A stretch of 64,000 nt of DNA from Escherichia coli (GCF_011045215.1 NZ_CP049201.1); one strand, 5' to 3'; shown: positions 1,409 to 56,650, counted from the first letter of the stretch. Notes: generated by a model not told the origin, from the letters alone. Numbers and translations: made by a program.

Positions 1409-1412
1409 GTGG

Positions 1413-6580: not shown

Positions 6581-6597
6581 AGTACGTCTCTTTGCGC

Positions 6598-7046: not shown

Positions 7047-8042
7047 ATGGCTTCATTAAAGGATGTCGCACGCCTGGCGGGAGTGTCGATGATGACAGTC
7101 TCCCGGGTGATGCATAATGCAGAATCTGTGCGTCCTGCAACGCGTGACCGCGTATTGCAGGCAATCCAGACCCTGAATTATGTTCCTGATCTTTCCGCCC
7201 GTAAGATGCGCGCTCAAGGACGTAAGCCGTCGACTCTCGCCGTGCTGGCGCAGGACACTGCTACCACTCCTTTCTCTGTTGATATTCTGCTTGCCATTGA
7301 GCAAACCGCCAGCGAGTTCGGCTGGAATAGTTTTTTAATCAATATTTTTTCTGAAGATGACGCTGCCCGCGCGGCACGTCAGCTGCTTGCCCACCGTCCG
7401 GATGGCATTATCTATACTACAATGGGGCTGCGACATATCACGCTACCCGAGTCTCTGTATGGTGAAAATATTGTATTGGCGAACTGTGTGGCGGATGACC
7501 CAGCGTTACCCAGTTATATCCCTGATGATTACACTGCACAATATGAATCAACACAGCATTTGCTCGCGGCGGGCTATCGTCAACCGTTATGCTTCTGGCT
7601 ACCGGAAAGTGCGTTGGCAACAGGGTATCGTCGGCAGGGATTTGAGCAGGCCTGGCGTGATGCTGGACGAGATCTGGCTGAGGTGAAACAATTTCACATG
7701 GCAACAGGTGATGATCACTACACCGATCTCGCAAGTTTACTCAATGACCACTTCAAATCGGGCAAACCAGATTTTGATGTTCTGATATGTGGTAACGATC
7801 GCGCAGCCTTTGTGGCTTATCAGGTTCTCCTGGCTAAGGGGGTACGTATCCCGCAGGATGTCGCCGTAATGGGCTTTGATAATCTGGTTGGCGTCGGGCA
7901 TCTTTTTTTACCGCCGCTGACCACAATTCAGCTTCCACATGACATTATCGGGCGGGAAGCTGCATTGCATATTATTGAAGGTCGTGAAGGGGGAAGTGTG
8001 ACGCGGATCCCTTGCCCGCTGTTGATCCGTTGTTCCACCTGA
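7047..8042 (+). CDS. cscR: Sucrose operon repressor CscR (LacI/GalR family)
   Basis: N-terminal HTH MASLKDVARLAGVSMMTVSRV then periplasmic-binding-like domain; start chosen at internal ATG 7047 (331 aa) rather than ORF-track 6861. Confidence 0.85.
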   Translation: MASLKDVARLAGVSMMTVSRVMHNAESVRPATRDRVLQAIQTLNYVPDLSARKMRAQGRKPSTLAVLAQDTATTPFSVDILLAIEQTASEFGWNSFLINIFSEDDAARAARQLLAHRPDGIIYTTMGLRHITLPESLYGENIVLANCVADDPALPSYIPDDYTAQYESTQHLLAAGYRQPLCFWLPESALATGYRRQGFEQAWRDAGRDLAEVKQFHMATGDDHYTDLASLLNDHFKSGKPDFDVLICGNDRAAFVAYQVLLAKGVRIPQDVAVMGFDNLVGVGHLFLPPLTTIQLPHDIIGREAALHIIEGREGGSVTRIPCPLLIRCST

Positions 8043-8049
8043 TATTATG

Positions 8050-9483
8050 TTAACCCAGTTGCCAGAGTGCTCCATGTTGCACCACAGCCACTCCGTGGGA
8101 GGCATAAAGCGACAGTTCCCGTTCTTCTGGCTGCGGATAGATTCGACTACTCATCACCGCTTCCCCGTCGTTAATAAATACTTCCACGGATGATGTATCG
8201 ATAAATATCCTTAGGGCGAGCGTGTCACGCTGCGGGAGGGGAATACTACGGTAGCCGTCTAAATTCTCGTGTGGGTAATACCGCCACAAAACAAGTCGCT
8301 CAGATTGGTTATCAATATACAGCCGCATTCCAGTGCCGAGCTGTAATCCGTAATGTTCGGCATCACTGTTCTTCAGCGCCCACTGCAACTGAATCTCAAC
8401 TGCTTGCGCGTTTTCCTGCAAAACATATTTATTGCTGATTGTGCGGGGAGAGATAGATTGATGCTGCTGGCGTAACGACTCAGCTTCGTGTACCGGGCGT
8501 TGTAGGAGTTTGCCATTGCTCTCTGATAGCTCGCGCGCCAGCGTCATGCAGCCTGCCCAGCCTTCACGTTTTGAGGGCATTGGCGATTCCCACATATCCA
8601 TCCAGCCGATAACAATACGCCGACCATCCTTCGCTACAAAGCTTTGTGGTGCATAAAAGTCATGCCCGTTATCAAGTTCAGTAAAATGCCCGGATTGTGC
8701 AAAAAGTCGTCCTGGCGACCACATTCCGGGTATTACGCCACTTTGAAAGCGATTTCGGTAACTGTATCCCTCGGCATTCATTCCCTGCGGGGAAAACATC
8801 AGATAATGCTGATCGCCAAGGCTGAAAAAGTCCGGACATTCCCACATATAGCTTTCACCCGCATCAGCGTGGGCCAGTACGCGATCGAAAGTCCATTCAC
8901 GTAATGAACTGCCGCGATAAAGCAGGATCTGCCCCGTGTTGCCTGGGTCTTTCGCCCCGACTACCATCCACCATGTGTCGGCTTCACGCCACACTTTAGG
9001 ATCGCGGAAGTGCATGATTCCTTCTGGTGGAGTGAGGATCACACCCTGTTTCTCGAAATGAATACCATCCCGACTGGTAGCCAGACATTGTACTTCGCGA
9101 ATTGCATCGTCATTACCTGCACCATCGAGCCAGACGTGTCCGGTGTAGATAAGTGAGAGGACACCATTGTCATCGACAGCACTACCTGAAAAACACCCGT
9201 CTTTGTCATTATCGTCTCCTGGCGCTAGCGCAATAGGCTCATGCTGCCAGTGGATCATATCGTCGCTGGTGGCATGTCCCCAGTGCATTGGCCCCCAGTG
9301 TTCGCTCATTGGGTGATGTTGATAAAACGCGTGATAACGATCGTTAAACCAGATCAGGCCGTTTGGATCGTTCATCCACCCGGCAGGAGGCGCGAGGTGA
9401 AAATGGGGATAGAAAGTGTTACCCCGGTGCTCATGAAGTTTTGCTAGTGCGTTTTGCGCCGCATGCAATCGAGATTGCGTCAT
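8050..9483 (-). CDS. cscA: Sucrose-6-phosphate hydrolase / invertase CscA (GH32)
   Basis: GH32 N-terminal motif WMNDPNG and overall match to recalled CscA; start taken at MTQSRL (ORF-track start 9492 also possible). Confidence 0.88.
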   Translation of the reverse strand: MTQSRLHAAQNALAKLHEHRGNTFYPHFHLAPPAGWMNDPNGLIWFNDRYHAFYQHHPMSEHWGPMHWGHATSDDMIHWQHEPIALAPGDDNDKDGCFSGSAVDDNGVLSLIYTGHVWLDGAGNDDAIREVQCLATSRDGIHFEKQGVILTPPEGIMHFRDPKVWREADTWWMVVGAKDPGNTGQILLYRGSSLREWTFDRVLAHADAGESYMWECPDFFSLGDQHYLMFSPQGMNAEGYSYRNRFQSGVIPGMWSPGRLFAQSGHFTELDNGHDFYAPQSFVAKDGRRIVIGWMDMWESPMPSKREGWAGCMTLARELSESNGKLLQRPVHEAESLRQQHQSISPRTISNKYVLQENAQAVEIQLQWALKNSDAEHYGLQLGTGMRLYIDNQSERLVLWRYYPHENLDGYRSIPLPQRDTLALRIFIDTSSVEVFINDGEAVMSSRIYPQPEERELSLYASHGVAVVQHGALWQLG

Positions 9484-9517
9484 TTTAATCATCCTGGTTA
9501 AGCAAATTTGGTGAATT

Positions 9518-9593
9518 GTTAACGTTAACTTTTATAAAAATAAAGTCCCTTACTTTCATAAATGCGATGAATATCACAAATGTTAACGTTAAC
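9518..9593. promoter_or_regulatory. Two copies of the perfect 12-bp palindrome GTTAACGTTAAC in the cscA-cscK divergent promoter region; candidate CscR operators
   Basis: Palindromes at 9518-9529 and 9582-9593 in an AT-rich 206-bp intergenic region; LacI-family operators are typically palindromic. Confidence 0.45.
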
Positions 9594-9698
9594 TATGACA
9601 TTTTGTGATCGAATATGCATGTTTTAGTTAATCCATGACGATTTTGCGAAAAAGAGGTTTATCACTATGCGTAAGTCAGATGAATTTAAGGGAAAAAA

Positions 9699-10613
9699 AT
9701 GTCAGCCAAAGTATGGGTTTTAGGGGATGCGGTAGTAGATCTCTTGCCAGAATCAGACGGGCGCCTACTGCCTTGTCCTGGCGGCGCGCCAGCTAACGTT
9801 GCGGTGGGAATCGCCAGATTAGGCGGAATAAGTGGGTTTATAGGTCGGGTCGGTGATGATCCTTTTGGTGCATTAATGCAAAGAACGCTGCTAACTGAGG
9901 GAGTCGATATCACGTATCTGAAGCAAGATGAATGGCACCGGACATCCACGGTGCTTGTCGATCTGAACGATCAAGGGGAACGTTCATTTACGTTTATGGT
10001 CCGCCCCAGTGCCGATCTTTTTTTAGAGACGACAGACTTGCCCTGCTGGCGACATGGCGAATGGTTACATCTCTGTTCAATTGCGTTGTCTGCCGAGCCT
10101 TCGCGTACCAGCGCATTTACTGCGATGACGGCGATCCGGCATGCCGGAGGTTTTGTCAGCTTCGATCCCAATATTCGTGAAGATCTATGGCAAGACGAGC
10201 ATTTGCTCCGCTTGTGTTTGCGGCAGGCGCTACAACTGGCGGATGTCGTCAAGCTCTCGGAAGAAGAATGGCGACTTATCAGTGGAAAAACACAGAACGA
10301 TCGGGATATATGCGCCCTGGCAAAAGAGTATGAGATCGCCATGCTGTTGGTGACTAAAGGTGCAGAAGGGGTGGTGGTCTGTTATCGAGGACAAGTTCAC
10401 CATTTTGCTGGAATGTCTGTGAATTGTGTTGATAGCACGGGGGCGGGAGATGCGTTCGTTGCCGGGTTACTCACAGGTCTGTCCTCTACGGGATTATCTA
10501 CAGATGAGAGAGAAATGCGACGAATTATCGATCTCGCTCAACGTTGCGGAGCGCTTGCAGTAACAGCGAAAGGGGCAATGACAGCGCTGCCATGTCGACA
10601 AGAACTGGAATAG
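9699..10613 (+). CDS. cscK: Fructokinase CscK (ribokinase/pfkB family)
   Basis: 304-aa ORF with pfkB-family motifs (GGAPANVA near N-terminus, DSTGAGDAF near C-terminus). Confidence 0.88.
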   Translation: MSAKVWVLGDAVVDLLPESDGRLLPCPGGAPANVAVGIARLGGISGFIGRVGDDPFGALMQRTLLTEGVDITYLKQDEWHRTSTVLVDLNDQGERSFTFMVRPSADLFLETTDLPCWRHGEWLHLCSIALSAEPSRTSAFTAMTAIRHAGGFVSFDPNIREDLWQDEHLLRLCLRQALQLADVVKLSEEEWRLISGKTQNDRDICALAKEYEIAMLLVTKGAEGVVVCYRGQVHHFAGMSVNCVDSTGAGDAFVAGLLTGLSSTGLSTDEREMRRIIDLAQRCGALAVTAKGAMTALPCRQELE

Positions 10614-10684
10614 TGAGAAGTAAATGGCGAAGTCGCTCTTATCTCTAAATAGGACGTGAATTTTTTAACGACAGGCAGGTAATT

Positions 10685-41321: not shown

Positions 41322-42113
41322 TTATGGTTCGATCGCCGTTTTGAGACGTTGTGTTGCTACATCAAAATAATGATCACTGGTTTCTATACCAATAAATTTG
41401 CGTCCTGCTTTCAGTGCAGCCACACCCGTTGTCCCTGACCCCATAAAAGGATCAAGGACTGTTCCACCACTATTCGCAGTCCTGACCAGCTCTGCCATAA
41501 GTTCTTCTGGCTTTCCGGTCGGGTGCATTTTCTTTGACGGGATAACCGGGAACGTCATGCAGCCGTCGAACGGACCTGAAGGCGATTTATCTAAATGGCC
41601 TTTGCTGCCCCAGACGATGTATTCACACTGATGCCGGAAATACCCCGTATGGGGTGTTCGTGACCCCCTTCCTTTGTTCCACACAATGATTCCACGCCAT
41701 GTAAAACCGCTGGCCTGAAACGCATCGGTTAAAGCTGGTAGTTGTCGCCAGTCAGTAAATACCAGGGCATAACCGCCCGGTCTGACCGCGCGGTGTGCCT
41801 GTGCCATCCATAATTGTGTCCAGTAAGCCCACGAACGGGCGTCCATGTTTTCACCCGCGAACCCATCAAAGCGGTGAAGGTTCCCGCCGTTCAGATATTT
41901 TGCATGGCTGCCCTGGTTGGTGCGTCCGGCCTTGTGTGTCGCACCCGAACTGTAAGGCGGGTCAGTGATTAAAGCATCAATGCTTTCTGGCTCAATCAGC
42001 GGCAATATTTCCAGCGCATTCCCACGACAGAGCGTGGCATTGTCAGTCTGATAAACCTTAGTGTGTTCCGGTGTATGTGCTGGTTGGTGCTGGATTGCGA
42101 TCCCCACGGTCAT
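41322..42113 (-). CDS. Phage-borne beta-class DNA amino-methyltransferase (N6-adenine or N4-cytosine)
   Basis: 263-aa ORF with DPPY (motif IV) near the N-terminus and FMGSGTT (motif I) near the C-terminus; 5' end overlaps the com-like gene. Confidence 0.8.
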   Translation of the reverse strand: MTVGIAIQHQPAHTPEHTKVYQTDNATLCRGNALEILPLIEPESIDALITDPPYSSGATHKAGRTNQGSHAKYLNGGNLHRFDGFAGENMDARSWAYWTQLWMAQAHRAVRPGGYALVFTDWRQLPALTDAFQASGFTWRGIIVWNKGRGSRTPHTGYFRHQCEYIVWGSKGHLDKSPSGPFDGCMTFPVIPSKKMHPTGKPEELMAELVRTANSGGTVLDPFMGSGTTGVAALKAGRKFIGIETSDHYFDVATQRLKTAIEP

Positions 42114-42255
42114 AACTCCTCATGTGTGTGGGGTGCTCGATGGCTCTCGTTATCTGGTTAAGTGTTTTGCAGCGCGGACATTTTATTTCAATGTAGTGAA
42201 ATGAGGCGCGGGCAAGTAGTTTGTTGCAATTTTTGCATCGTACATTTTGCGTCAT
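42058..42255 (-). CDS. Com-like zinc-finger translational activator (phage Mu Com family)
   Basis: RCKNCNKLL...IEIKCPRCK...EHPT matches the recalled Mu Com C4 zinc finger; AGAGG RBS about 8 nt upstream of ATG 42255; 56-nt overlap with methyltransferase start as com overlaps mom in Mu. Confidence 0.75.
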   Translation of the reverse strand: MTQNVRCKNCNKLLARASFHYIEIKCPRCKTLNQITRAIEHPTHMRSYDRGDRNPAPTSTYTGTH

Positions 42256-42302
42256 TTGCGGCACCTCTTGTGTGGTTACTGCTGCCGATATGATAGCAAA
42301 TC

Positions 42303-42490: not shown

Positions 42491-42631
42491 TTACTGCTTA
42501 CACTGTAAGAACGCCGCAAACTCCGCTCCCCAGAAGCTCATCCGTATTTCGCATAGCGAACCGTGCAGCATCCAGATGATGAGGATTGCCGTCACGCAGA
42601 ACGTGATGGCCGTAAGCGATTTTTGCGACAT
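42491..42631 (-). CDS. Hok/Gef-family type I toxin-like small membrane protein (46 aa)
   Basis: Manual translation MSQKSLTAITFCVTAILIIWMLHGSLCEIRMSFWGAEFAAFLQCKQ; AAGGAG RBS 8 nt upstream; single TMS then SLCEIR...G.E.AAF motif as in recalled Hok/Gef; not in ORF track (<60 aa). Confidence 0.5.
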   Translation of the reverse strand: MSQKSLTAITFCVTAILIIWMLHGSLCEIRMSFWGAEFAAFLQCKQ

Positions 42632-42821: not shown

Positions 42822-43082
42822 TTAATTCTGAGGTAAAGGCAAACTCATCTGATTGTTTCCCCTGTGTGAAGCTGGCAGATCATGCCATGGGATACCTTCT
42901 GATGAGTGAACGCCGGAGGCGTGTTTCGATGTAAATTTATGGAAAGCTTCCAGTGTTGAGAAGCATACGCCGCATTCCAGGTTGTTACACTGGTAATACT
43001 TTTGCCGCACGGTGTTTGAATCATTTTCCGGACGACTGGTGCGGATACGGGCAGATGCGCCACAAAGCGGACAACGGAACAT
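42822..43082 (-). CDS. ogr: Ogr/Delta-family zinc-finger late-gene transcriptional activator
   Basis: MFRCPLCGASARIRTSR...YYQCNNLECGVCFST matches the recalled P2 Ogr C4 zinc finger. Confidence 0.85.
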   Translation of the reverse strand: MFRCPLCGASARIRTSRPENDSNTVRQKYYQCNNLECGVCFSTLEAFHKFTSKHASGVHSSEGIPWHDLPASHRGNNQMSLPLPQN

Positions 43083-44391: not shown

Positions 44392-45576
44392 ATGAGTGAA
44401 ACTCGTTTTCATGGTGCCCGTGTTACGGAAAATACCGACCTGGTAACAGCGATTAACGATGTTGATTCCAGCGTTATCGGTATCGTGGCAACGGCGGATG
44501 ATGCGGACGCGAAGCTGTTCCCGCTGAACAAGCCCACACTGCTGACCCGCGTCAATGACGTGCTGGGAAAATGCGGGACAACGGGGACGCTTTATCGTGC
44601 GCTTAAGGCCATCGCAGACCAGGTGAGCACAAAGGTGATCGTCGTTCGCGTGGCTGAACACAAAGAAGAAGACGGAAAAACGCAGGATCAACTGGTTATC
44701 GGTGGTTCTGAATCTGACGGCAGCTATACGGGGATGTATGCGCTGCTTGTTGCAGAGCAGGATGAAAGCATCGGATACCGTCCGCGTATTCTGGCCGCGC
44801 CGGAGCTGGACACGGAGGCGGTAACAAAATCCCTGTGCGTGATTGCGGGTAAACTGCGCGCGTTTGTGTATGCCTCATGTCACGGCTGTAACACGATGGC
44901 TGAGGCGATTACCTACCGCCAGAAATTCAACGAACGTGAGGTGATGCTCTTATGGCCGGACTTCATCGCCTACAACCCGAAAAGTGGCAAAAACGAAACG
45001 TTCCCCGCGCCTGCCTATGCGTGCGGCCTTCGTGCGTACATTGACCATGAGCAGGGATGGCACAAATCACTGTCCAACGTTCCGGTTAAAAATGTGCTGG
45101 GGATGTCGAGGCATGTGTTCTGGTCGTTGCAGGCCGAAGACAGCGATGCCAACAGCCTCAACAACAAAGAAATCACGACCATTATTCGTCGCAACGGGTT
45201 CCGCTTCTGGGGCAACCGCACACCGGAAACGAACGCCTACATCTTTGAGGTGTATACCCGAACCGCACAGGTGCTGGCTGATTCAATTGCGGAAGCGCAG
45301 TTTGAAACCATCGACAGTCCACTGACGCCTGCGAACGTGAAGGATGTTATCAGTGCCATCAGGGCAAAACTGGATTCACTGGTTACTGCCGGGAAACTGA
45401 TTGGCGCGGAGTGCTGGTATGACGTGGTGGATAACAGCACCACGGATTTACGTCAGGGGCGTGTGCGTATTCGCTACAAATATACGCCTGTTCCCCCGCT
45501 GGAAGACATGGAGCTTTACCAGACGTTTACTGATGAATACTTTGAACCCGCATTTGCGGTGCTGGGAGGTGCCTGA
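44392..45576 (+). CDS. Contractile tail sheath protein (P2 gpFI-like)
   Basis: 394-aa ORF; matches recalled gpFI (e.g. RTAQVLADSIAEAQ, YKYTPVPPLE). Confidence 0.9.
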   Translation: MSETRFHGARVTENTDLVTAINDVDSSVIGIVATADDADAKLFPLNKPTLLTRVNDVLGKCGTTGTLYRALKAIADQVSTKVIVVRVAEHKEEDGKTQDQLVIGGSESDGSYTGMYALLVAEQDESIGYRPRILAAPELDTEAVTKSLCVIAGKLRAFVYASCHGCNTMAEAITYRQKFNEREVMLLWPDFIAYNPKSGKNETFPAPAYACGLRAYIDHEQGWHKSLSNVPVKNVLGMSRHVFWSLQAEDSDANSLNNKEITTIIRRNGFRFWGNRTPETNAYIFEVYTRTAQVLADSIAEAQFETIDSPLTPANVKDVISAIRAKLDSLVTAGKLIGAECWYDVVDNSTTDLRQGRVRIRYKYTPVPPLEDMELYQTFTDEYFEPAFAVLGGA

Positions 45577-46088
45577 TGGCTGTGCCAAAACATCTTCGCT
45601 TTTTTACGCTGTTTGTGGATGGTGAAAACGAAGTGGGTAAGGTGACGTCCGTCACTCTGCCTAAGCTGACGCGCAAAACCGACAGCTACCGGGGTGGCGG
45701 CATGATGGGTGCGGTAAGTATTGATCTCGGTCTGGACGACTCCGCGCTTGATGCGAGCTTTGTCATGGGGGGCGCAGTTCGTGAGCTGTTCCTTAAGTAT
45801 GGCGGCACGATTGACGGCACGCTGCTGCGTTTTGCGGGTGAATACTACACCGATGCAGAAAGCGACCTGTATGAAGTCGAAATGCGCGGACGTGTGACGG
45901 AAATTGATATGGGGGAAGCCAAACAGGGCGAAGCCACATCACACACTTACGCCATTAAAAACACCTACTACAAGCTGAGTGTTAACGATCGCCCGTTGTG
46001 GGAGATTGACCTGCTGAACTTCATTTACCGGAAGGACGGCAAGGACATTGTGCCCGATCGCATCCGTTCCGCGCTTGGGCTTGGCTGA
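45576..46088 (+). CDS. Tail tube protein (P2 gpFII-like)
   Basis: 170-aa ORF immediately after sheath gene with 1-bp overlap. Confidence 0.85.
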   Translation: MAVPKHLRFFTLFVDGENEVGKVTSVTLPKLTRKTDSYRGGGMMGAVSIDLGLDDSALDASFVMGGAVRELFLKYGGTIDGTLLRFAGEYYTDAESDLYEVEMRGRVTEIDMGEAKQGEATSHTYAIKNTYYKLSVNDRPLWEIDLLNFIYRKDGKDIVPDRIRSALGLG

Positions 46089-46142
46089 TAAGTAATATGC
46101 AGGCGGCGCAGTGCGTCGCCTCTGACTGAAAGGAGTTTCCTG

Positions 46143-46508
46143 ATGAAAGAGACGAAAAACATCGATACCGAAAACACGGTAGTTACTGACACTGTGAAAG
46201 AAACCAGTGAGCGTGGCGTAAAACTTACCCAACCAATTGAGCGAGGCGGCGAAAAAATCACGTATGTGGAGATCACCGGGGCTATTGAGCAGGCTGGATC
46301 TCTGCGAGATTTGTCGCTGTCTGATGTGCTGAATCTGAAAGCGGAATCCATGTTTACGCTGCTGTCACGCGTGACATCACCGCGACTGGATGAAGTGACG
46401 ATCAAAAAAATGGCATCCCGTGACTTTATTCAGTTATGTGTGGTTGCCGTAAATTTTTTGAGCGGTGCGGACTCTGGCGGGAAGAACGAACAGGCGACGG
46501 AAGCCTGA
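46143..46508 (+). CDS. Tail assembly chaperone gpE; the -1 frameshift product E+E' extends to 46672
   Basis: 121-aa ORF followed by an overlapping -1 frame ORF (to 46672) whose sequence (PAEIFMMTPGEVVSWRERAA) resembles gpE' extensions; position between tube and tape-measure genes. Confidence 0.7.
   Translation: MKETKNIDTENTVVTDTVKETSERGVKLTQPIERGGEKITYVEITGAIEQAGSLRDLSLSDVLNLKAESMFTLLSRVTSPRLDEVTIKKMASRDFIQLCVVAVNFLSGADSGGKNEQATEA
46454..46460 (+). other. Slippery heptamer TTTTTTG for programmed -1 ribosomal frameshift (E to E+E')
   Basis: Zero frame reads AAT TTT TTG (N F L); shifting -1 at T TTT TTG gives FFERCGLW..., identical to the downstream overlapping ORF. Confidence 0.55.
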
Positions 46509-46658
46509 TCACGGTTGTGTGCTTTGAGCACATAGAAGACTTTGTGGCGGATATTGCCGCCATTTTTAACTGGTCGCCCGCCGAAATCTTCATGATGACG
46601 CCCGGCGAAGTGGTTAGCTGGCGTGAGCGGGCGGCACTTCGCAGCGGGAATGCAGACA

Positions 46659-49466
46659 ATGAAGACTCTTGATATCCGGGTCGCTTTCAGCGCCGTTGAC
46701 AGGCTGACCCGGCCTGCCGAAAACGCCCGCCGCCTGATGGGGCAGTTTGGTGACTCCATCCAGCGAACGCAGGGGGCGATCAAAAATCTCGAGCGTCAGG
46801 CGCGTTCATTTGAGCGCGCCCGTGACGCTGTCAGTAAAGCGGATGCTGGCATATTGAAAGCACGACGCCAGCTTAACGCCCTTAATCAGTTACAACGCAC
46901 GGGTACAGTGCTCAGCGAAAAACAACAAAAGCTGATGCAGCAGTTAAGCACCCGGCTTGAACGCCTGAATGAATCGCGCACACGTGAAATTCAGAAAATG
47001 CGGGAGCTTGGCGGAGAGCTGAAACGCCACGGCATTTCCCTGACAGGCAGCGATAACACCATCCAGCAGGCCATCAGACGCACCGAACAGTACAACAACC
47101 AGCTTGAACGCGAACGGCAGGCGCTTGCGCGTGTAACGCGGGCGCGTGAGCGGTATTCGCGCGTGCAGGAAACCGCGGGAAAACTGAAAACAGGTGGTGC
47201 GCTGGCAATTGGTGCGGCAGCGGCGGGCGGCTATGCTGCCGGGCGTTTTTTGCAGCCTGCGATCGGGTTCGGGAAAGAGATGTCCCGCGTTCAGGCGCTG
47301 ACGCGAATCGACCAGAACAGCCCACAGTTTAAGGCGCTGCGTGAGCAGGCGTTAAAACTTGGCTCTGAAACGCAGTTCACCGCTGGAGATGCCGCCAGTG
47401 GACAGGCATTTCTTGCAATGGCTGGCTTCACACCACAGGCCATTCAGGCTGCGCTTCCCGGTGTGCTGAGCATGGCAACGGCTGGCGGTATGGATCTCGG
47501 TGAGACGGCGGATATTGGCTCAAACATCCTGACGCAGTTCGGCCTTTCTGCCGACCAGATGGACCGGGTCGGTGACACGCTCACCGCAGCGTTTACCCGT
47601 ACCAACACTGACCTTCGCGCACTGGGCGAAACCATGAAATATGCAGGTCCGGTGGCGGGCAAGCTGGGAATATCGCTGGAGCAGGCCGCAGCGATGGCGG
47701 GCGTGCTGGCGAATATGGGTATCAGGGGAAGTGATGCCGGGACGGCAATGCGTGCCAGCCTGGCTCGTCTGGCATCACCGCCAAAGGCGGCAGCAGAGGC
47801 GCTGAAAGAGCTTGGTGTGGCAGTCTCTGACGCGAACGGCAAAATGCGCCCGATGGAGGATGTGCTGGCCGACCTTTATAAAGCCACCCGCAAATACGGG
47901 GAAGTTGACCGGGTATCGTTCTTTAAGGACATTGCCGGAGAAGAGGCTTTCACATCGTTTATGGCGCTCGTTGATGCAGCGGGTGACGGTTCCTTACCTA
48001 AACTGAGAAAAGAACTTGAAGGCGCGCGCGGTGAGGCTGAACGCACAGCAAAGGTTATGGCCAACAACCTTGACGGCGATCTGAAATCACTCGGCAGTGC
48101 ATGGGAAGGGTTGCGCATCCGCATTGCAGATCTGATTGACGGTCCGCTGCGTTCTGTCACGCAGTGGCTCACACGGGTGGTATCAAGGGTGACGGCGCTG
48201 GCGCAGGCCCATCCGACACTGACGCGCCAGCTACTGATAGCAGGCGGTGCGTTGCTGGCAATGACTGCAACGGTTGGCTCGTTGTCGCTGGCTATTGGTG
48301 TGCTTGCTGGCCCGCTGGCAAAACTGCGTCTTGGTTTTTCTCTCCTGACCGGATCAATGAATGCTGTCAGGGTCCTGCCAGCACTATGGGGAATGGTGAC
48401 GGGTTCCGTTTCTTTGCTGGGAGGTGCTATCGGGGCGCTGTTCAGTCCGGTTGGTCTTATCGTGGCTGCGCTTGCCGGAGCTGCCGTTCTTATCTGGAAA
48501 TACTGGGATCCCATCAGGGCATTTTTTGCCGGGGTGTTCAGCGGGATTATGGAAAGGCTGATCCCGTTGCGCGAAACCTTTGAACAGTTTGGTCCTGTTT
48601 TTGACGCAATCGGAAGCGGGATCAGCCAGGTGTTTAACTGGTTTAAATCGCTGCTGTCACCGATGGAGTCCAGCAAGGAAACGCTGGATAAATGTACCAG
48701 TGCTGGCGAGATATTCGGTAACGTTCTTGGTGGCGCGTTACAGCTTGTTCTGACGCCTGCAAAAATGTTGCTGGATACGCTGGCGTGGATACTTGAAAAA
48801 CTCGGTGTTCTTCCGGATGAAGCGGAAAGGGCGAGAAAGAAAATCGAAGACGCACAGCGTGCGGCCATTCTTCAGGACAAGGTTGCCTTGCTTCAGGGGG
48901 ACCTGGCGAAAATCAATCCGCCGAAGCCTGTGGAAAATGGCAATGGCACCGGAGGTGATAAACCCAAAGACAACAAACCGCTCACAGACAGCAATACCGG
49001 GACGCTACGCAGACTCAGCAAAATTGCTGATAACACAGGTAAGCTGGTTGATGAGACGAAAAAACGCATTGGCCCCGGCGATATTGTCTTTAAGAACCTG
49101 CCCCGCGCACTTGCTGTTCGTGGGGAGTGGCAGGAGCGGAAGATTGCGCAGGTCAGTAAGCCTGCCCCCGCAATTAATATCACACCCGTGGTCCCGGCTC
49201 CGCTGCCTCCGGCGCTGGTCCCTGTTGTTGCGGCCAGCTCCCGCCCGGTGGCGGAGGCTATACGATCTCCAGTGGCATCAGTTCCTGTAACTTCCCGTAA
49301 CCGGGAGCCTGTTGCCTCCGGATTTGGTGGTGAAATTCATGTTCATCTGCATAACGTTGTTACGCAGAATCCCCGCGAACTGGCGAAACTAGTCGGTGAA
49401 ATGGTCAGGGCAGAAATGGAACGGCGCGCCCGTGCCGGGCGTGGCAGTTTTTACGATAAAGATTGA
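46659..49466 (+). CDS. Tail tape measure protein (P2 gpT-like)
   Basis: About 935-aa coiled-coil / Gly-Ala-rich protein; start taken at MKTLDIR overlapping the E' stop (ORF-track start 46623 alternative). Confidence 0.85.
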   Translation: MKTLDIRVAFSAVDRLTRPAENARRLMGQFGDSIQRTQGAIKNLERQARSFERARDAVSKADAGILKARRQLNALNQLQRTGTVLSEKQQKLMQQLSTRLERLNESRTREIQKMRELGGELKRHGISLTGSDNTIQQAIRRTEQYNNQLERERQALARVTRARERYSRVQETAGKLKTGGALAIGAAAAGGYAAGRFLQPAIGFGKEMSRVQALTRIDQNSPQFKALREQALKLGSETQFTAGDAASGQAFLAMAGFTPQAIQAALPGVLSMATAGGMDLGETADIGSNILTQFGLSADQMDRVGDTLTAAFTRTNTDLRALGETMKYAGPVAGKLGISLEQAAAMAGVLANMGIRGSDAGTAMRASLARLASPPKAAAEALKELGVAVSDANGKMRPMEDVLADLYKATRKYGEVDRVSFFKDIAGEEAFTSFMALVDAAGDGSLPKLRKELEGARGEAERTAKVMANNLDGDLKSLGSAWEGLRIRIADLIDGPLRSVTQWLTRVVSRVTALAQAHPTLTRQLLIAGGALLAMTATVGSLSLAIGVLAGPLAKLRLGFSLLTGSMNAVRVLPALWGMVTGSVSLLGGAIGALFSPVGLIVAALAGAAVLIWKYWDPIRAFFAGVFSGIMERLIPLRETFEQFGPVFDAIGSGISQVFNWFKSLLSPMESSKETLDKCTSAGEIFGNVLGGALQLVLTPAKMLLDTLAWILEKLGVLPDEAERARKKIEDAQRAAILQDKVALLQGDLAKINPPKPVENGNGTGGDKPKDNKPLTDSNTGTLRRLSKIADNTGKLVDETKKRIGPGDIVFKNLPRALAVRGEWQERKIAQVSKPAPAINITPVVPAPLPPALVPVVAASSRPVAEAIRSPVASVPVTSRNREPVASGFGGEIHVHLHNVVTQNPRELAKLVGEMVRAEMERRARAGRGSFYDKD

Positions 49467-49472
49467 GGAGTC

Positions 49473-49967
49473 ATGGCCATGATGATGATCTACGGCATGT
49501 TTGTTTTTGAGCTGCGCACGCTGCCGCATCAGCAGTTACAGCAAAACAAAAGCTGGCGGCATGTGAAAAATGAACGCGTTAACCGTTCAGCAAGCTGGCA
49601 GTATATCGGTGCAGGTGATGATCGCATCGTTCTTTCTGGTGTGCTTTATCCTGAAATTACAGGTGGCGAAGTGTCGCTGTCGCTGCTGACCACGCAGGCG
49701 TATACAGGACGACCCTGGCCTTTGATTGATGGTGTCGGGCAGATTTACGGCATGTATGTCCTGACCGGAACGAATACGACCCGTTCCGAGTTTGATCGCT
49801 ACGGTAAGGCGAAAAAGATAGAATTTTCACTGACCCTTGAACGCTGTGATGAGGATTTGCGGGAGCGCCTGCAATCCTCATCGTTCAGTGATATGCTGTC
49901 CGGCTTCAAAGATAAGGTCACATCATCCCTTAACAGCGCGGCCAGCTCCGTTAAAGGGCTGTTTTGA
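49473..49967 (+). CDS. Tail protein gpU-like
   Basis: 164-aa ORF after tape measure; matches recalled P2 gpU pattern. Confidence 0.8.
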   Translation: MAMMMIYGMFVFELRTLPHQQLQQNKSWRHVKNERVNRSASWQYIGAGDDRIVLSGVLYPEITGGEVSLSLLTTQAYTGRPWPLIDGVGQIYGMYVLTGTNTTRSEFDRYGKAKKIEFSLTLERCDEDLRERLQSSSFSDMLSGFKDKVTSSLNSAASSVKGLF

Positions 49968-49974
49968 TTAACGC

Positions 49975-50004
49975 AAAACCGCTAATGGTCAGATTAGCGG
50001 TTTT
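49975..50004. terminator. Hairpin between convergent gpU and invertase genes; probable bidirectional terminator, overlaps the last invertase codons
   Basis: AAAACCGCTAAT-GGTCAG-ATTAGCGGTTTT, 12-bp perfect stem flanked by A/T runs. Confidence 0.45.
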
Positions 50005-50611
50005 CATTTTCCTGAGTCTGCCTGGTTGTTTCTTCAGCCTGTATATCGCCTACAGGGTGATAACGATAAATCGTCGATATGCCGATGCCGTAAATGATCG
50101 CCAGTTGTTTCCTGTCATGACCGTTTTTGATCAGCCTTGCTATTTGCTCATGCTGTTCTTTTGTCAGCTTCGGGCGACGTCCGCCTGTGCGCCCCCGTGC
50201 GCGCGCTGCCGCCAGTCCGGCCAGTGTACGTTCAACAATTAATTCACGTTCCATTTCAGCCAGGGCACCCATCACGTGGAAGAAAAAACGCCCCATTGGA
50301 GAAGATGTATCTATGCTGTCGGTCAGACTGCGAAAATTAATCCCTCGCTCCCGTAGTTCTCCGACGAGAGAAATCAGATGTTTCATGCTTCGCCCAAGGC
50401 GATCCAGTTTCCAGACAACCAGCGTGTCACCTTTTTGAAGCCGCTTTAAAGCGCGTTTTAATCCCGGTCGGTCTGTCTTTGTCCCGCTTAATTTATCTTC
50501 AAATATTTGTTCACATCCTGCACAAACAAGAGCGTTTCGTTGCAGGTCTGTATTCTGGTCATTTGTTGATACCCTTACATAACCAATCAGCACACTGAAT
50601 CTCCCGTCCAA
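49994..50611 (-). CDS. Site-specific DNA invertase, serine recombinase of the Gin/Pin/Hin/Cin family
   Basis: LIGYVRVSTNDQNTDLQRNAL N-terminus with catalytic Ser and C-terminal HTH; true start may be the GTG at 50593. Confidence 0.9.
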   Translation of the reverse strand: MDGRFSVLIGYVRVSTNDQNTDLQRNALVCAGCEQIFEDKLSGTKTDRPGLKRALKRLQKGDTLVVWKLDRLGRSMKHLISLVGELRERGINFRSLTDSIDTSSPMGRFFFHVMGALAEMERELIVERTLAGLAAARARGRTGGRRPKLTKEQHEQIARLIKNGHDRKQLAIIYGIGISTIYRYHPVGDIQAEETTRQTQENENR

Positions 50612-50657
50612 AAGCGCAAATCATGCCATGCAGGCCGGAAACGGCCATTATCTAAAA

Positions 50658-50683
50658 CCTCGGTTTACAGGAAACGGTAAATC
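50658..50683. other. Inversion crossover site (gix/pix-like), left boundary of the invertible segment
   Basis: TTATCTAAAACCTCGGTTTACAGGAA; 12-bp half-sites around a 2-bp core; inverted copy at 53717-53742. Confidence 0.65.
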
Positions 50684-51618
50684 AGGCTTCTGGCGCATTA
50701 CAGAAAAACCAGAACGGCGCAGATATTCCGGGAAAAGATACCTTCACCAAAAATATTGGGGCCTGCCGCGCATATAGCGCATGGCTGGATATTGGTGGCG
50801 ATAGTCAGGTCTGGACAACCGCGCAATTTATTTCGTGGCTGGAGAGTCAGGGAGCATTTAACCATCCTTACTGGATGTGCAAAGGCTCATGGGCTTATGC
50901 AAATAATAAGGTCATTACAGATACAGGTTGCGGAAATATTTGTCTTGCAGGTGCTGTGGTGGAAGTTATTGGCACTCGCGGCGCAATGACCATACGCGTT
51001 ACCACGCCGAGCACGTCCAGCGGTGGAGGAATTACTAACGCTCAATTCACTTATATTAATCATGGTGATGCTTACGCTCCTGGCTGGCGACGAGACTACA
51101 ACACGAAAAATCAACAACCTGCATTTGCTTTAGGGCAAACAGGAAGCACTGTCGGAAATGATAAAGCTGTTGGCTGGAACTGGAATAGCGGGGTCTATAA
51201 CGCAAATATTGGTGGCGCATCGACATTAATCCTCCACTTCAATATGAATACGGGGAGCTGCCCTGCTGCACAGTTCCGCGTGAATTACAGAAATGGCGGA
51301 ATCTTTTATCGTTCAGCGCGTGATGGTTATGGCTTTGAAGCTGACTGGTCAGAGTTTTACACCACAACCCGCAAACCCTCTGCGGGAGATGTTGGTGCAT
51401 ATACGCAGGCAGAATGTAACTCAAGGTTTATTACAGGTATTCGCCTTGGCGGTCTGTCATCTGTTCAGACATGGAATGGTCCCGGCTGGTCTGACAGGTC
51501 AGGTTATGTCGTTACGGGTTCAGTTAACGGAAACCGTGATGAATTAATTGATACAACTCAGGCAAGGCCAATTCAGTATTGCATTAATGGGACGTGGTAT
51601 AACGCGGGGAGTATTTAA
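50684..51618 (+). CDS. Alternative tail fibre C-terminal receptor-binding domain (silent in this orientation; no start codon of its own)
   Basis: Frame open from the crossover site ([10 protein letters not shown]...) to stop at 51618, in the same codon phase relative to the site as the expressed copy; ends ...[12 protein letters not shown] like the expressed fibre. Confidence 0.7.
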
Positions 51619-51620
51619 CG

Positions 51621-52154
51621 ATGATGCACTTAAAAAACATTACTGCTGGCAACCCTAAAACAAAAGAGCAATACCAGCTAACGAAACAATTTAACATCAA
51701 ATGGCTTTATTCAGAGGATGGAAAAAACTGGTATGAGGAACAAAAGAATTTCCAGCCAGACACTTTGAAAATGGTCTATGACCATAACGGCGTTATTATT
51801 TGTATTGAAAAGGATGTTTCAGCAATTAATCCGGAAGGCGCAAGCGTCGTTGAATTACCTGATATTACAGCAAATCGCCGTGCTGACATTTCGGGTAAAT
51901 GGATGTTCAAAGATGGCGTAGTGGTAAAGCGAACTTATACCGAGGAAGAGCAGAGGCAGCAGGCGGAAAATGAAAAGCAAAGCCTGCTACAGCTCGTCAG
52001 GGATAAAACCCAGCTATGGGACTCACAGCTACGGCTGGGCATCATTTCCGACGAGAATAAACAAAAATTAACCGAGTGGATGCTCTATGCGCAGAAAGTC
52101 GAATCCACAGACACCTCCAGCCTGCCAGTAACGTTTCCAGGACAACCAGAATGA
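51621..52154 (+). CDS. Alternative tail fibre assembly chaperone (U'-like)
   Basis: 177-aa ORF starting [22 protein letters not shown], paralogous to the minus-strand chaperone at 52183-52710. Confidence 0.8.
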
Positions 52155-52182
52155 GACAAGGCCCGCTATCGGGCCTTAATTT

Positions 52183-52710
52183 TTATTCAGGCTTTTGTGG
52201 CCATTCAGGATTTGCCGTATCCACACGGCTGACCAGAACACTGTAGCGTTCCCATGACTCCAGTCGTGTGCGTTCCTCATCCGTCGCCATATTCAGCCTG
52301 ACAGCGCGTTCCAGTGGCTGAATAACGCTTTCAGCTTCGGAAAGTAACGCAGCCTTTTGTGATTCGGCCTGTTGTTGTTGCTCGTCTGCCGTATAAATCC
52401 GTTTAACTACAGCTCCATCCTTAAACATCCACTTTCCTGAACCATCAGCGCGGCGGTTGGCTGTAATATCGGGAACCTCAACGACGCTAAAACCTTCAGG
52501 GTTAAGCGTGGAGGCATCTTTAGTAATGGCGACAATAATATTATTTGCATCGTAAACAATCTTTATTGTGTCTGGCTGAAAGTTTTTCACTTCCTCATAC
52601 CAGTTTTTTCCGTCCTCAGAGTAAAGCCAGATAACTCCGTGTTTCTTTGTTAACTCATACTGTTCCAGTGTTTTAGCGTTACCCGCTTTTATGTTCTTTA
52701 AGTGCATCAT
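52183..52710 (-). CDS. Tail fibre assembly chaperone (P2 gpG / Mu U-like), currently expressed orientation
   Basis: 175-aa ORF starting [22 protein letters not shown] directly downstream of the tail fibre gene. Confidence 0.8.
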
Positions 52711-52711
52711 A

Positions 52712-54874
52712 TTAAACGCTCGCTACATTATACCAGGTGCCATTTATATACTTTTGAACGGGTCTGTAATAAACGCCCGCTATATTATCGGCAGAGTTGG
52801 AGCCTGTATCCTGAACATTAATACCAGACAATACATGACCTGACGGGCACTGGAAATTCCATGTTTGCCAGTTGTTCACTCCATAATATTGCTGTGAACC
52901 AAGTCGAACATCTTTCACATATCTGGAATCAAAATTGCCATAATTGCCGGGAATAACTTGCGCACCGCAAAGCCAGTTCCCGTTATTATCCATGTACGCC
53001 TGACCATCGGTGCCATTGGCTGTCCTTGAGTTATTAATCATGTAGATGCCAAATTGCTTATTTCCCAGACCGCCAATCATAAATTTTCGGTCGGCATGGT
53101 CCTGACGGAGCAAGGCCTGGGCGCTATCAGTGTTAACTATATTTTTCCCAAAGATAGCGTTGTTATCGCGCATCTGAATCCACATACCATTACCGCTGTT
53201 AATAGCAAAACGGTCTGAAAGTGTTTCTCCTGAAACATTAAGGCCACGCCCCATCGAAACAGCGCCAGTAGCGTTATTAATCCATAATGGCCTTAATCCG
53301 TTATAAGTCCCCATGTTGTCACCGGAGTTTGTCAACATGAAGTATGTATTTGAACCATCATTACGAATAAAGAATCCGTAACTACCATAAGCAATACGTA
53401 GGCCGTTTGCTGATTTTGATATGACTTCGCCATTTACAATGGCATTGACAAGAACATACAAAGCATCCCATTTAAGATTCATCAGGTCTTTTGTTGTGGT
53501 GCCTTGTTTGCTTCTCCATTTGAAATATTCATTGCCGTTGTCGCCTGTTTCAAACCACATGTATGAATCAGTATCGCTGTCGGCATCATTTTTAAATCCA
53601 ATCTTTGCCCAGTCAGTATTTCGAATCCAGGCAAGGATTGAGTCGTTTTCAAAAGTAAGTCCACCGGACAAGGTATCGCCTGTCTTTTGAACGGCGTTAC
53701 CAGCCTTGTTTACCGTTTCCTGTAAACCGAGGTATTCGATAACGGCGGCAACGGTCGATTTCGCAAGAATATCCCGCCCAACTTTTGTCAGGGTTGCCAA
53801 GCTGGCAACATCATTCCCCGTAAAATACGGAAACCTGTCTGCCGCAGTAGCAAGCCCGGCCAGCGCCGTCAGGGTGGCATCTTTCGGTTGCTTACCCGCA
53901 AGCGCGTTAGTCATGGTGGTCGCAAAATTCGGGTCGTTGCCCAACGCCGCAGCCAGCTCGTTCAGCGTATTCAGTGCGTCAGGCGACGAGTCCACGAGGG
54001 CAGCGATCGCAGCCATAACATAAGCCGTGCTTGCGATCTGAGTATTGTTAGTACCTTTTGGCGCAGTTGGTGTTGTTGGTGTTCCGGTCAGTGCCGGGCT
54101 GTTTAATGGGGCTTTCTTGTTCGTTTCATCCATTACCGCCTTAACCGCTTTTGGTGTCGCTGCCAGCGTTTCAGACGTGCTGTTGGTTGCACTACTAAGC
54201 TGGACAAGGCCTTTTCGCGTTGTAGTGGCGTCCTGAGCGGTATATTTTCCGTTAGCCAGGTCATACGCGGCCTTTACTGCTTTCGGCGTTGCAGCCTGCG
54301 TTTCAGAATCGTTGTTAGTGGCGCTACTGAGTTGAACAAAGCCTTTTGCGGTCAGCGAGGCATCCGGGTGACGTCGTGACTGTTCATGCTCTTTCAGTTT
54401 GTCATTCACGTAATCCACTGTGGCCATAACCATGGTGTTATCCACGGTAAGCGCCACGGTGGCAGTGCTGGATACGGTCAGAATGGTGCGAAATGTTTGT
54501 GCACGTCCGGACCCTTCGGCAACGGCTGGCTTGTAACTTTCGGCAGTATTGCCCACCGCGATCAAATCGCCGTGCTCATCAAACACACCAATTTCCCGGA
54601 TCCAGAATCCGCCCGTTTCAGGAGGAATAACCAGCTCTGCAATAATGCGGTTCTGATGTGTTGCGTCCAGGATGATGCGATTAACAGTATGTCGCCACAC
54701 CTCATGCACCAGACGGGTCTGCTTACTGTCTGGTGTGGGCAATGTACCGCCACCGTCGCCCACGGCCATATGAGTCAGGCGGACAGGCTTACCATCTGGC
54801 GCGGCTGCCTGAGCTAATTTTTTGGCACCCGTATCGGTGATAACGGTTTTAAATTTTCGTGTTGTGGTACTCAT
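52712..54874 (-). CDS. Tail fibre protein (P2 gpH-like) with constant N-terminal part and invertible C-terminal part
   Basis: 720-aa ORF; N-terminal region matches recalled P2 gpH; the crossover site falls at ...[13 protein letters not shown]... Confidence 0.9.
53717..53742. other. Inversion crossover site (gix/pix-like), right boundary, inside the tail fibre gene
   Basis: TTCCTGTAAACCGAGGTATTCGATAA, inverted relative to 50658-50683 with 17 of 17 identical bases from the outer end and minor divergence in the other half-site. Confidence 0.65.
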
Positions 54875-54876
54875 GC

Positions 54877-55407
54877 TTAATCGTCCGGATAAATGGTAAT
54901 GACTTCGCCGTCGTAAGTTGCTGCCGCCGCGAAAATATCTCCCTGAATCTCCTGAATGATATTCAGCCCTGTCATGTGGCGGCTGACCGGGCGGGCATCA
55001 GCAATCAACCGCTCCATTTCCAGATACATTTCCTCGGTCACACCACTGTCCAGCGTGCCGACTTCAACGGTAAATGTTCCCGGTTCTCCGCCGAACTCCC
55101 ACCACTCAGACACACGAATGAGGTATCCCAGCGGCTCAATGGCCCGGCGCAGTGCGCTGATGGTCCCTTTGTGTCGGTGTATCAGCCATGCATCACGAAT
55201 CACCTGTCGTTTTGTCTCTTCCGGCCAGTTGCGATCCCAGCGGTCAACGGAAAATGCCCAGGCGAGATAAGGCAGCAGGTGCACCGGGCAGGTGTCCGGC
55301 GACCACAGCGTGTTGAGGTCTACCGGAATGTCTGTAATGCGTGTTCCGACGGCTTCGGCACAACGCATGAAACTGCTGGCTGATGGCGGTAACAGTGAAT
55401 TACTCAT
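54877..55407 (-). CDS. Baseplate protein gpI-like
   Basis: Position between J and H; start taken at MSNSLLPPSASSF (176 aa); ORF-track start 55440 alternative. Confidence 0.8.
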   Translation of the reverse strand: MSNSLLPPSASSFMRCAEAVGTRITDIPVDLNTLWSPDTCPVHLLPYLAWAFSVDRWDRNWPEETKRQVIRDAWLIHRHKGTISALRRAIEPLGYLIRVSEWWEFGGEPGTFTVEVGTLDSGVTEEMYLEMERLIADARPVSRHMTGLNIIQEIQGDIFAAAATYDGEVITIYPDD

Positions 55408-56296
55408 TGCGCCCACCTTCGCTGATGGTGAATGACTCACAGCGCGCCGCCTGTATGTCGCTGATGGCCATATTCTGTGTGGGTTCGATTATCTCCACGC
55501 GTTGCACACCGTGCACATGCAGTGCGGCAGCAATGGCGGACAACGCCACGTCCTGACCGATAAGCCCCTGCTCAGCCAGCCACTTCCTGAACGACGATTC
55601 CGCCGCCGCCAGAATAGGTTCGGATTCCGGACCGGGGTAAAAGTACAGTTTTGCATTCAGCCGCCATGTCACGATTCTGGCGCTCTGTACGGTCAGGCGG
55701 TCGGCCACCGGGCGGGTATCCTCTGCATTCAGAACGGCGCGAACGGTATTAAGCAACGCCTCCGTTGCTGTGCCGTCGCCTTCAGTGGACAGGATGGAAA
55801 CCGTCACATTTGCCGGAGACGGACTGATAGCCCGCGCATCACGCACCAGACCGCTGGCGCTGCGGGCAAAATACTCGTATGCACCTGACGGGCCAGCAAC
55901 ACTCAGGCCGTCGTACGCCCGTTGCGCCCGCAGTCTCAGCGAGGTGTCGCTTTCCATCACCGCGTCGGTGGTATCCGTTGCCGGAGTGATAACCAGGCGC
56001 TTTGTGTTCATATTGCCCGCGAGGTTGTCCAGGTCTGTCCCGGCGCTGTGGCTTAACATGCAGGCGCGTGCACCCTCGTTAACCCGCTGGCGTAACAGCA
56101 TTTCACGAAACGACATGGTTTGAGCGATAACGTTAAGGGGTTCCGATTCCAGCTCCAGCGCGGCGGAAACGGCTTCACGCTGTTCGGCGGGATAAGCCGC
56201 AATCATCATGGCCTTTGTGTCAGCCAGAATTGCCTCAAAGTCAGGCTCCGCGATGATGGCGGGGTCCGGTAACTGTGAAAGGTCAACGGCGGGCAT
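55400..56296 (-). CDS. Baseplate wedge protein gpJ-like
   Basis: 298-aa ORF in conserved V-W-J-I order. Confidence 0.85.
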   Translation of the reverse strand: MPAVDLSQLPDPAIIAEPDFEAILADTKAMMIAAYPAEQREAVSAALELESEPLNVIAQTMSFREMLLRQRVNEGARACMLSHSAGTDLDNLAGNMNTKRLVITPATDTTDAVMESDTSLRLRAQRAYDGLSVAGPSGAYEYFARSASGLVRDARAISPSPANVTVSILSTEGDGTATEALLNTVRAVLNAEDTRPVADRLTVQSARIVTWRLNAKLYFYPGPESEPILAAAESSFRKWLAEQGLIGQDVALSAIAAALHVHGVQRVEIIEPTQNMAISDIQAARCESFTISEGGRNE

Positions 56297-56299
56297 GAT

Positions 56300-56650
56300 T
56301 TACTCCCTCAGCGTGATGGTTAATTCAACATTCTGCATGGTCTGCATGACAGTGCCCGACAGCGTCACCCCGGCGCGGCCTCCCGCTTTCCAGACAACGT
56401 CGATGGCATCCAGGGCAATGCGGGGTTCCCATCGTGTCAGCGCAATCACGGCAGCACTCATGCATTGCAGACGCGTGGTGTTATTCATGGGTTCGTCAAT
56501 CAAATCAGGCACAAGGCTGCCATATTCCCGTCGCATAACCCGGCTTGCCAGCGGGGTGGTCAGGATATCCCTGACTGACTGTTTCAGGTGCTCCATATCG
56601 TTCAGGTTTCCCGTCCCGTCCGGATTCATTCCTGTGTAGCGGGTTGTCAC
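56300..56650 (-). CDS. Baseplate protein gpW-like
   Basis: 116-aa ORF; 4-bp overlap with gpV gene. Confidence 0.8.
   Translation of the reverse strand: MTTRYTGMNPDGTGNLNDMEHLKQSVRDILTTPLASRVMRREYGSLVPDLIDEPMNNTTRLQCMSAAVIALTRWEPRIALDAIDVVWKAGGRAGVTLSGTVMQTMQNVELTITLRE

Follow-up and report, generated by a model that had tools for sequence, protein, structure and literature searches.

A Gin/gix-type inversion switch that very probably exchanges the tail-fibre tips of a P88-like Escherichia coli prophage

Does the tail-fibre region of a P2-related prophage constitute a site-specific inversion switch, and does this switch still flip? The question is raised by positions 49994-54874 of a 64,000-nucleotide stretch of Escherichia coli DNA (GCF_011045215.1, NZ_CP049201.1; the whole stretch is called the window below). 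An earlier reading based on the sequence alone (the sequence-only reading) had seen a Gin/Pin-type serine invertase gene beside a 3.1-kb segment bounded by inverted 26-bp sites and had proposed that host range is switched as by the G segment of phage Mu or the C segment of phage P1. We conclude with great confidence that a P88-like (P2-related) E. coli prophage here carries a two-state host-range switch of the Gin/gix type that works by site-specific inversion. The switch is real and evidently active; its activity was seen in identical or near-identical copies in other strains. The system as such is already known: it belongs to the Gin/Hin/Cin/Pin family of invertases and is directly homologous to the G segment of Mu.

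The switch is defined by two crossover sites and the segment between them:

50648..50673, plus strand: invertase-proximal gix-type crossover site, TTATCTAAAACCTCGGTTTACAGGAA; two 12-bp half-sites flank the core TC at 50660-50661.
53717..53742, minus strand: crossover site inside the tail-fibre gene H, TTATCGAATACCTCGGTTTACAGGAA; it encodes ...IEYLGLQE and has its core dinucleotide at 53729-53730.
50661..53729, no strand assigned: invertible segment of 3,069 bp, homologous to the G segment of phages Mu and D108.

Compared with Mu gix, the left site has one mismatch and the right site has two. The two sites differ from each other at two positions, both of which are in the outer half-sites. The core dinucleotide TC is the same at both sites on their respective strands, i.e. 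the sites are in inverted orientation and the right one reads GA. The length of 3.1 kb given earlier was borne out: the segment measures 3,069 bp between the central dinucleotides (50660-61 and 53729-30) and 3,095 bp between the outer site ends. The sequence-only reading had quoted the left site correctly and had misplaced it by 10 nt (50658-50683 instead of 50648-50673). The right site, inverted and inside the tail-fibre gene, was recovered at 53717-53742 exactly as described, by sequence reading as well as by pattern search. Inward of the sites the arms are identical for a further 25 nt, and a repeat finder reported a weaker inverted similarity between 50644-50705 and 53685-53746.

A 26-mer pattern search which allowed up to three mismatches returned these two sites alone in the 64 kb. 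The pattern had no match in 100 shuffles, i.e. none is expected by chance. Thus, no third crossover site was present in the 64 kb at this stringency, and the core AAACCNNGGTTT had no match elsewhere in the prophage. Because this core matches nowhere else in the prophage, we consider the locus a two-site system and not a shufflon. A multiple-inversion type, be it shufflon-like, as Min of p15B or as the three-repeat locus of enteropathogenic E. coli (EPEC), was considered and rejected; it needs at least three sites and only two were found. Lack of conservation of the 26-bp sites in related elements had been named as a reason to abandon the proposal. The sites are conserved in the phages P88, 520873 and Mu and in E. 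coli WS1933D.

On either side of the right site the fibre gene is divided into a constant and a variable part, and the segment holds a second variable part and two chaperone genes:

53730..54874, minus strand: constant N-terminal part of H (P2 H-type), outside the segment and holding the start codon; P2-type tail-collar domain at the N-terminus (Pfam Phage_tail_fib) and two Phage_fiber_2 repeats.
52712..53729, minus strand: variable C-terminal part now fused to H (Mu Sv-like); Gp34_trimer domain and similarity to Mu S.
52183..52710, minus strand: chaperone now co-expressed with H (Mu U / P2 G type), 175 amino acids (aa); Pfam Caudo_TAP, E 3e-37.
51621..52154, plus strand: silent alternative chaperone (Mu U' type), 177 aa; 97% identity to Mu U'.
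50662..51618, plus strand: silent alternative fibre C-terminus (Mu S'v type), lacking its own start codon at the site; its reading frame allows fusion once the segment is inverted.

In the list of open reading frames (ORFs) H appears as a protein of 720 aa (52712-54874, minus strand) and the silent fibre part as a 247-aa ORF (50875-51618, plus strand), the frame of which is open back to the left repeat. The point of exchange is located within the Leu codon of EYL/GLQE. Inversion in silico placed the silent part in frame with H and yielded an uninterrupted fibre of 700 aa, as expected from the codon phase that had been noticed earlier. Because the identity of the arms continues inward through ...T-V-N, the two fibre proteins part ways only after TVN. 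Two alternative C-termini had been claimed and both exist; their lengths, given as 335 and 311 aa, were 334 and 314 aa when counted after ...GLQE. The promoter, the start codon and the first 382 codons of H lie outside the segment, and therefore each orientation gives a different C-terminus together with a different chaperone. A sigma-70 promoter scan of the region produced fewer matches than the shuffles and nothing informative; the promoter of the H operon is outside the region.

The two chaperone ORFs are convergent and paralogous (59% identical), in the opposite orientations that had been described. The sequence-only reading had advised a comparison of the C-termini with S and S' of Mu. 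The expressed variable part had 86% aa identity to the C-terminal 337 aa of Mu S; for its chaperone the values were 91% (Mu U) and 89% (P2 G). The silent fibre part was 98% identical to Mu S' over 322 aa. H overall was 64% identical to P2 H. Since the expressed pair resembles Sv/U and the silent pair S'v/U', the window is in the G(+)-like state in Mu terms. An NCBIfam scan of six proteins returned nothing for the fibre or the chaperones, and sub-threshold serine-recombinase matches for the invertase.

Does the segment flip? Complete E. coli genomes were searched with the region as it stands and with a version flipped in silico, at a threshold of at least 80% coverage. The window orientation was present in 90 genomes and the flipped orientation in 106. 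In strain 2020N21-110 the orientation is opposite to that in the isolates -15 and -24 derived from it, and phage 520873 carries the flipped arrangement. Thus, a population restricted to one orientation, which would have spoken against the proposal, was not what the genomes showed.

Both orientations were also encountered within single assemblies. The chromosome of strain KSC9 (NZ_CP018323.1) matches both versions of the 6.1-kb region at 100.0% identity. The record has an untrimmed terminal overlap of 32.9 kb, in which 1-32872 repeats 4822419-4855460 and which comprises most of the prophage and flk-yfcJ. The ends of the overlap are rich in frameshifts and carry many indels, as low-coverage ends of assemblies typically do. 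Collinearity of the two copies is broken only by one inverted block, the ends of which correspond to window 50644-50688 and 53702-53746. Similarly, WS1933D (NZ_CP035836.1) has an overlap of 11.2 kb (1-11175 vs 4972976-4984149) in which the segment is present in opposite orientations, and the inverted block ends at the 26-bp sites. The left site is an inversion breakpoint in both strains. Because the overlapping copies differ structurally only by the inversion, with breakpoints in the sites, we conclude that both states were present in a single culture of KSC9 and likewise of WS1933D.

Alternatively, the copies in KSC9 and WS1933D could be real tandem duplications of the prophage which were fixed in opposite states. 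The offset of 32.8 kb in KSC9 is close to one phage genome (P88, 35.8 kb). However, the KSC9 repeat extends over the chromosomal flank flk-yfcJ and breaks off within a truncated gene where the record ends; the record opens midway through a phage replication gene, and frameshifts are frequent at both ends. The WS1933D offset, which begins within the sheath gene, measures only 11.2 kb. Because a flank is included, the ends are within genes and rich in frameshifts and the WS1933D offset is short, the record ends are untrimmed overlaps of circular assemblies. Tandem duplication is most unlikely.

Another explanation of the orientation polymorphism dispenses with an invertase and invokes RecA-dependent homologous recombination between the short inverted repeats. 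The arms do share 25 nt of perfect identity in a stretch of about 60 nt at 79%, and the overlap of the BLAST blocks (about 45 nt) cannot alone place the exchange at the central dinucleotide. Yet RecA recombination is efficient only above a minimal length of identity, and 25 bp is close to this limit or under it. The repeats are bona fide gix sites which adjoin a Gin homologue. Further, the ratio of orientations of about 1:1 and their coexistence in single cultures fit frequent site-specific flipping. We consider a RecA origin of the inversions scarcely credible.

For site-specific inversion by an invertase, the preferred reading, a gene is at hand next to the segment:

49994..50593, minus strand: gene for a serine DNA invertase; 199 codons, with the GTG start codon that Mu gin also uses; Pfam Resolvase and HTH_7.
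50484..50581, no strand assigned: 5' stretch of the invertase gene, 98/98 nt identical to Mu gin and the longest mismatch-free run; the expected location of a Fis-dependent enhancer.

A 205-aa form of the invertase with a TTG start (49994-50611) that was listed is an over-extension; the Prokaryotic Genome Annotation Pipeline (PGAP) annotates the same ORF, 49994-50593, in the identical KSC9 copy. The Pfam matches were Resolvase (PF00239, E 2e-50) and HTH_7 (PF02796, E 2e-12), and the best match among solved structures was Mu Gin (4m6f, E 4e-100). This agrees with the Gin/Pin type assigned before. In the alignment, residues 1-113 equal those of Gin except for one K/R change. S9 is the catalytic (linking) serine of Gin, and M114V is a Fis-independent mutant (PMC3575834). 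In the window invertase Ser9 is present (VLIGYVRVS aligned to Gin 4m6f/3uj3), i.e. the inactivation of the catalytic serine against which the sequence-only reading had cautioned has not occurred, and Met114 is wild type, i.e. the enzyme is not of the Fis-independent M114V kind. In Hin, Gln151, Arg154 and Leu155 and the basic residues 47/48/51 are specific to invertases that depend on Fis and an enhancer (PMC3798978). These residues of Fis-activated invertases (Q-x-x-R-L in helix 1 and the basic helix B) are present in the window invertase. Aligned to Hin 1hcr, its DNA-binding domain reads EQIARL where Hin has EQISRL, so the EQIxRL motif is kept, and KRALK of the basic helix B is conserved, with GLKRALKRL identical to Gin.

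At the DNA level the identity to Mu gin is about 95% from the gene start to about 50245 (the first approximately 115 codons) and then drops abruptly to about 50%. Because of this collapse near 50245 we regard the invertase gene as a mosaic. The DNA-binding domain is about 55% identical to that of Gin and is closer to Hin, particularly in the recognition helix. The enhancer of Gin reportedly resides in the 5' part of gin. From the identity to Mu gin, a putative enhancer is placed at 50484-50581. Fis-like 15-mers of the form G-N13-C are shared with Mu, and the centres of one pair (50548-50534 and 50500-50486) are 48 bp apart. Measured from centre to centre, loose Fis-like 15-mers lie 95-168 bp away from the crossover site. 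A strict Fis consensus scan had no match either in the window or in Mu. Because only loose Fis-like motifs were found, the enhancer is a predicted and not a located element, and the dependence of inversion on Fis and enhancer is presumed.

Could these features have survived in a frozen relic, the segment having lost its ability to invert, for instance through lack of invertase expression or a defect of the prophage? All population data were obtained from strains other than the window's own, and several genes of related copies are marked as frameshifted by PGAP. Further, phage P2 shows that such switches become fixed. Its H gene holds an orphan gix-like 26-mer, TTATCGAATATCTCGGTTTACAGGAA, at the position equivalent to the right site (P2 record 13857-13882, one mismatch to the right site of the window) and has neither a partner site nor an invertase, as if a P2 switch had been fixed in one state. 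In the window, however, the ORF of the invertase is undamaged and retains every catalytic and Fis-contact residue; the two sites are likewise intact, and their cores match. The single KSC9 assembly contains the 6.1 kb at 100% identity in both orientations, and the frameshifts fall in the error-rich assembly ends. A relic is thus very unlikely, and we infer that the segment would also flip in the source strain of the window.

An active switch of the Gin/gix type would be expected to operate as follows. Invertase dimers would bind to both inverted 26-bp sites (50648-50673 and 53717-53742). Host Fis, seated on the enhancer within the 5' part of the invertase gene, would activate the dimers, and the sites would synapse. 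Ser9 would then make double-strand cuts at the central TC/GA dinucleotide; rotation and subsequent religation would leave the 3,069-bp segment inverted. In this way the constant part of H would be fused alternately to one receptor-binding tip or the other, and the chaperone belonging to that tip would be transcribed along with it. In the orientation of the window the Mu Sv/U-like pair would be expressed and give the 720-aa fibre. In the inverted orientation the Mu S'v/U'-like pair would be expressed and give the 700-aa fibre.

Several points weigh against this interpretation. First, flipping is demonstrated only in identical or near-identical copies of the switch in other strains. Second, the enhancer has been placed by identity to Mu gin and by loose motifs, and its function is putative. 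Third, the consequences of the two orientations for host range are presumed by analogy. Fourth, the efficiency and bias of inversion could differ from those of Mu because the DNA-binding domain of the invertase differs from that of Gin and the outer half-sites differ from Mu gix. Finally, in WS1933D both orientations occur even though both copies of the invertase carry a frameshift annotation. This hints at a sequencing error or at invertases acting in trans.

In the latter case, inversion would largely be carried out by another resident invertase, e.g. Pin of e14 or a Gin/Cin homologue of another prophage, and the adjacent gene would be dispensable. Gin, Cin, Pin and Hin cross-complement each other. 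Many E. coli genomes have several places homologous to the region, up to 11 in a single genome, and the findings in WS1933D fit such trans action. On the other hand, the adjacent invertase of the window is intact and carries the putative cis enhancer region, and the frameshift in WS1933D may be a sequencing error. Catalysis mainly in trans is unlikely. It is compatible with a Gin/gix-type switch, since it changes the catalyst and not what the element is. The homologous places and the WS1933D data also bear on a more speculative idea. The invertase may have arisen by a natural domain swap that put a more Hin-like DNA-binding domain onto a Gin catalytic core. If this alters its site preference or bias, it might cross-talk differently with other Gin/Pin-type segments, and the switches would form a cross-acting network instead of an autonomous unit. 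This idea also draws on the crossover sites, the outer halves of which deviate from Mu gix as well as from one another; we think it improbable.

How does the Gin/gix-type switch of the window relate to known systems? As in the G segment of Mu and D108 with Gin, the constant fibre part lies outside, Sv-U and U'-S'v are convergent inside the segment, and the invertase adjoins the segment and points in the same direction as the fibre gene. DNA identity to Mu/D108 is 93-95% and reaches from the fibre-side site into the invertase gene, to about codon 115. Unlike in Mu, the constant fibre part is of the P2 H-type and not Mu Sc, the DNA-binding domain of the invertase is not Gin-like, and tail gene U is found downstream of the switch where Mu has com-mom. 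Further, the window element is a P2-related integrating prophage whereas Mu is a transposable phage. The C segment of P1/P7 with Cin belongs to the same switch family, and P1 C DNA is about 91% identical over the segment. The segment alone was matched in P1, P7 and D6 at about 91-93% DNA identity; in contrast to Mu, the match stops short of the invertase gene (query from about 1291). The likeness to Mu G and P1 C that had been suspected from the outset thus extends to the DNA. By description, the P segment of e14 with Pin and Fin of Fels-2 (Salmonella) belong to the same family of fibre switches; Fels-2 is said to be a P2-like prophage equipped with such an invertase, Fin.

With P88 and other Xuanwuvirus phages (e.g. 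520873 and Citrobacter phage phiSM) the window element has the same backbone and gene order. P88 is annotated with a 'DNA invertase', two fibre ORFs and two assembly proteins, and aligns at 94% coverage and 94.7% identity. It differs in the expressed variable region, which is unaligned at window 52757-52898 and 53209-53437, and has a fibre of 764 aa. In a host-range study of P88, residues were swapped in the expressed fibre tip; 'invert' or 'inversion' occurs 0 times in that paper, and the silent tip and the invertase are not mentioned (PMC5285337). The P88 host-range data may reflect lysates of mixed orientation. The silence on inversion is an oversight of one paper and not a gap in knowledge. 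The tail-fibre segments of the P2-like prophages of EPEC E2348/69 constantly flip, as was shown experimentally, and Hin homologues catalyse the reaction (Goldberg et al. 2014, PMC4272514). One of these EPEC loci is a simple two-variant switch and, by description, like that of the window; another is a three-repeat shufflon, unlike the window with two sites only.

P2 itself has the constant part of H, chaperone G (89%) and the order J-I-H-G in common with the window. Unlike the window it is without an invertase, a second site and an alternative fibre/chaperone pair, and it has fun(Z). In P2 the late genes J-I-H-G, fun(Z) and FI-FII-E-T-U-D are co-directional, whereas in the window FI-U is reversed relative to H-G.

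Judged by sequence comparison, the host element is a P88-like (Xuanwuvirus, Peduoviridae) prophage. A megablast search against phage records found the whole 6.1-kb region in P88 and other Xuanwuvirus phages at a coverage of 81-94% and an identity of 93-95%. The P2-type gene set (capsid N/O/M, V-W-J-I-H-G, FI-FII-E-T-U-D, ogr, cox and int) is present in the near-identical KSC9 prophage by PGAP names, and the genes which neighbour the switch are P2-type. Hence the P2-like prophage of the sequence-only reading can be specified further. The FI-FII-E-T-U block (44392-49967, plus strand) is inverted compared with P2 and converges on the fibre/invertase region (50000-57869, minus strand). D and ogr retain the other orientation. 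The arrangement as a whole is that of P88/Xuanwuvirus. Because the FI-U block is inverted relative to P2, the invertase abuts the 3' end of U and not FI with its promoter. The invertase had been supposed to occupy the position of Z/fun in P2. Like fun(Z), it does come after the genes for fibre and chaperone. It abuts U instead of FI, and sits between the fibre segment and the U 3' end and not in the G-FI slot that holds fun(Z) in P2.

Two hairpins are located between convergent genes of the region:

52158..52177, no strand assigned: G+C-rich hairpin between the convergent chaperone genes; terminator-like match AAGGCCCGCTATCGGGCCTT.
49975..50004, no strand assigned: hairpin with a 12-bp stem between the convergent tail gene U and invertase gene, from a sequence scan.

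The first is likely the terminator for whichever operon is on. The second would serve as a bidirectional terminator.

At the end of the prophage a Com-like zinc-finger ORF (42058-42264, minus strand) has 60% identity to Mu Com over 42 aa. It overlaps the start of a 263-aa DNA methyltransferase (41322-42113, minus strand). Taken together, 41322-42264 resembles the com-mom arrangement with the methyltransferase replacing Mom; hok/gef (42491-42631) and ogr (42822-43082) adjoin this pair. The chromosomal flank (1-41100) comprises evgA, emrKY, dsdA, the csc sucrose genes, fadL, fadIJ, the yfc fimbriae, aroC, fabB and flk, and the csc genes lie beside tRNA-Arg(CCT) at 12374-12448. By BLAST of the whole window, this flank has about 98% identity to KSC9, the yfc fimbrial cluster 83%, and IS621 is absent in the window. 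From this divergence we conclude that the window stems from another E. coli lineage, in which this prophage also occupies the flk/pdxB locus.

What does the switch mean beyond this locus? Annotation pipelines name the silent halves 'tail fiber protein' or 'hypothetical protein' and the invertase 'recombinase family protein'. Because of these generic names the switch is invisible in RefSeq records. Fibre-engineering work on P88 ignored it. Active flipping can block the circularisation of long-read assemblies and thus lead to duplicated, error-rich ends in 'complete genome' records such as those of KSC9 and WS1933D; in KSC9 circularisation was probably blocked by the flipping segment. The occurrence and activity of such switches in P2-like E. 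coli prophages are already published, and bet-hedging of phage host range by site-specific inversion is textbook knowledge (Mu G, P1 C, e14 P). By the mechanism set out above, lysogen populations would release particles of two adsorption specificities.

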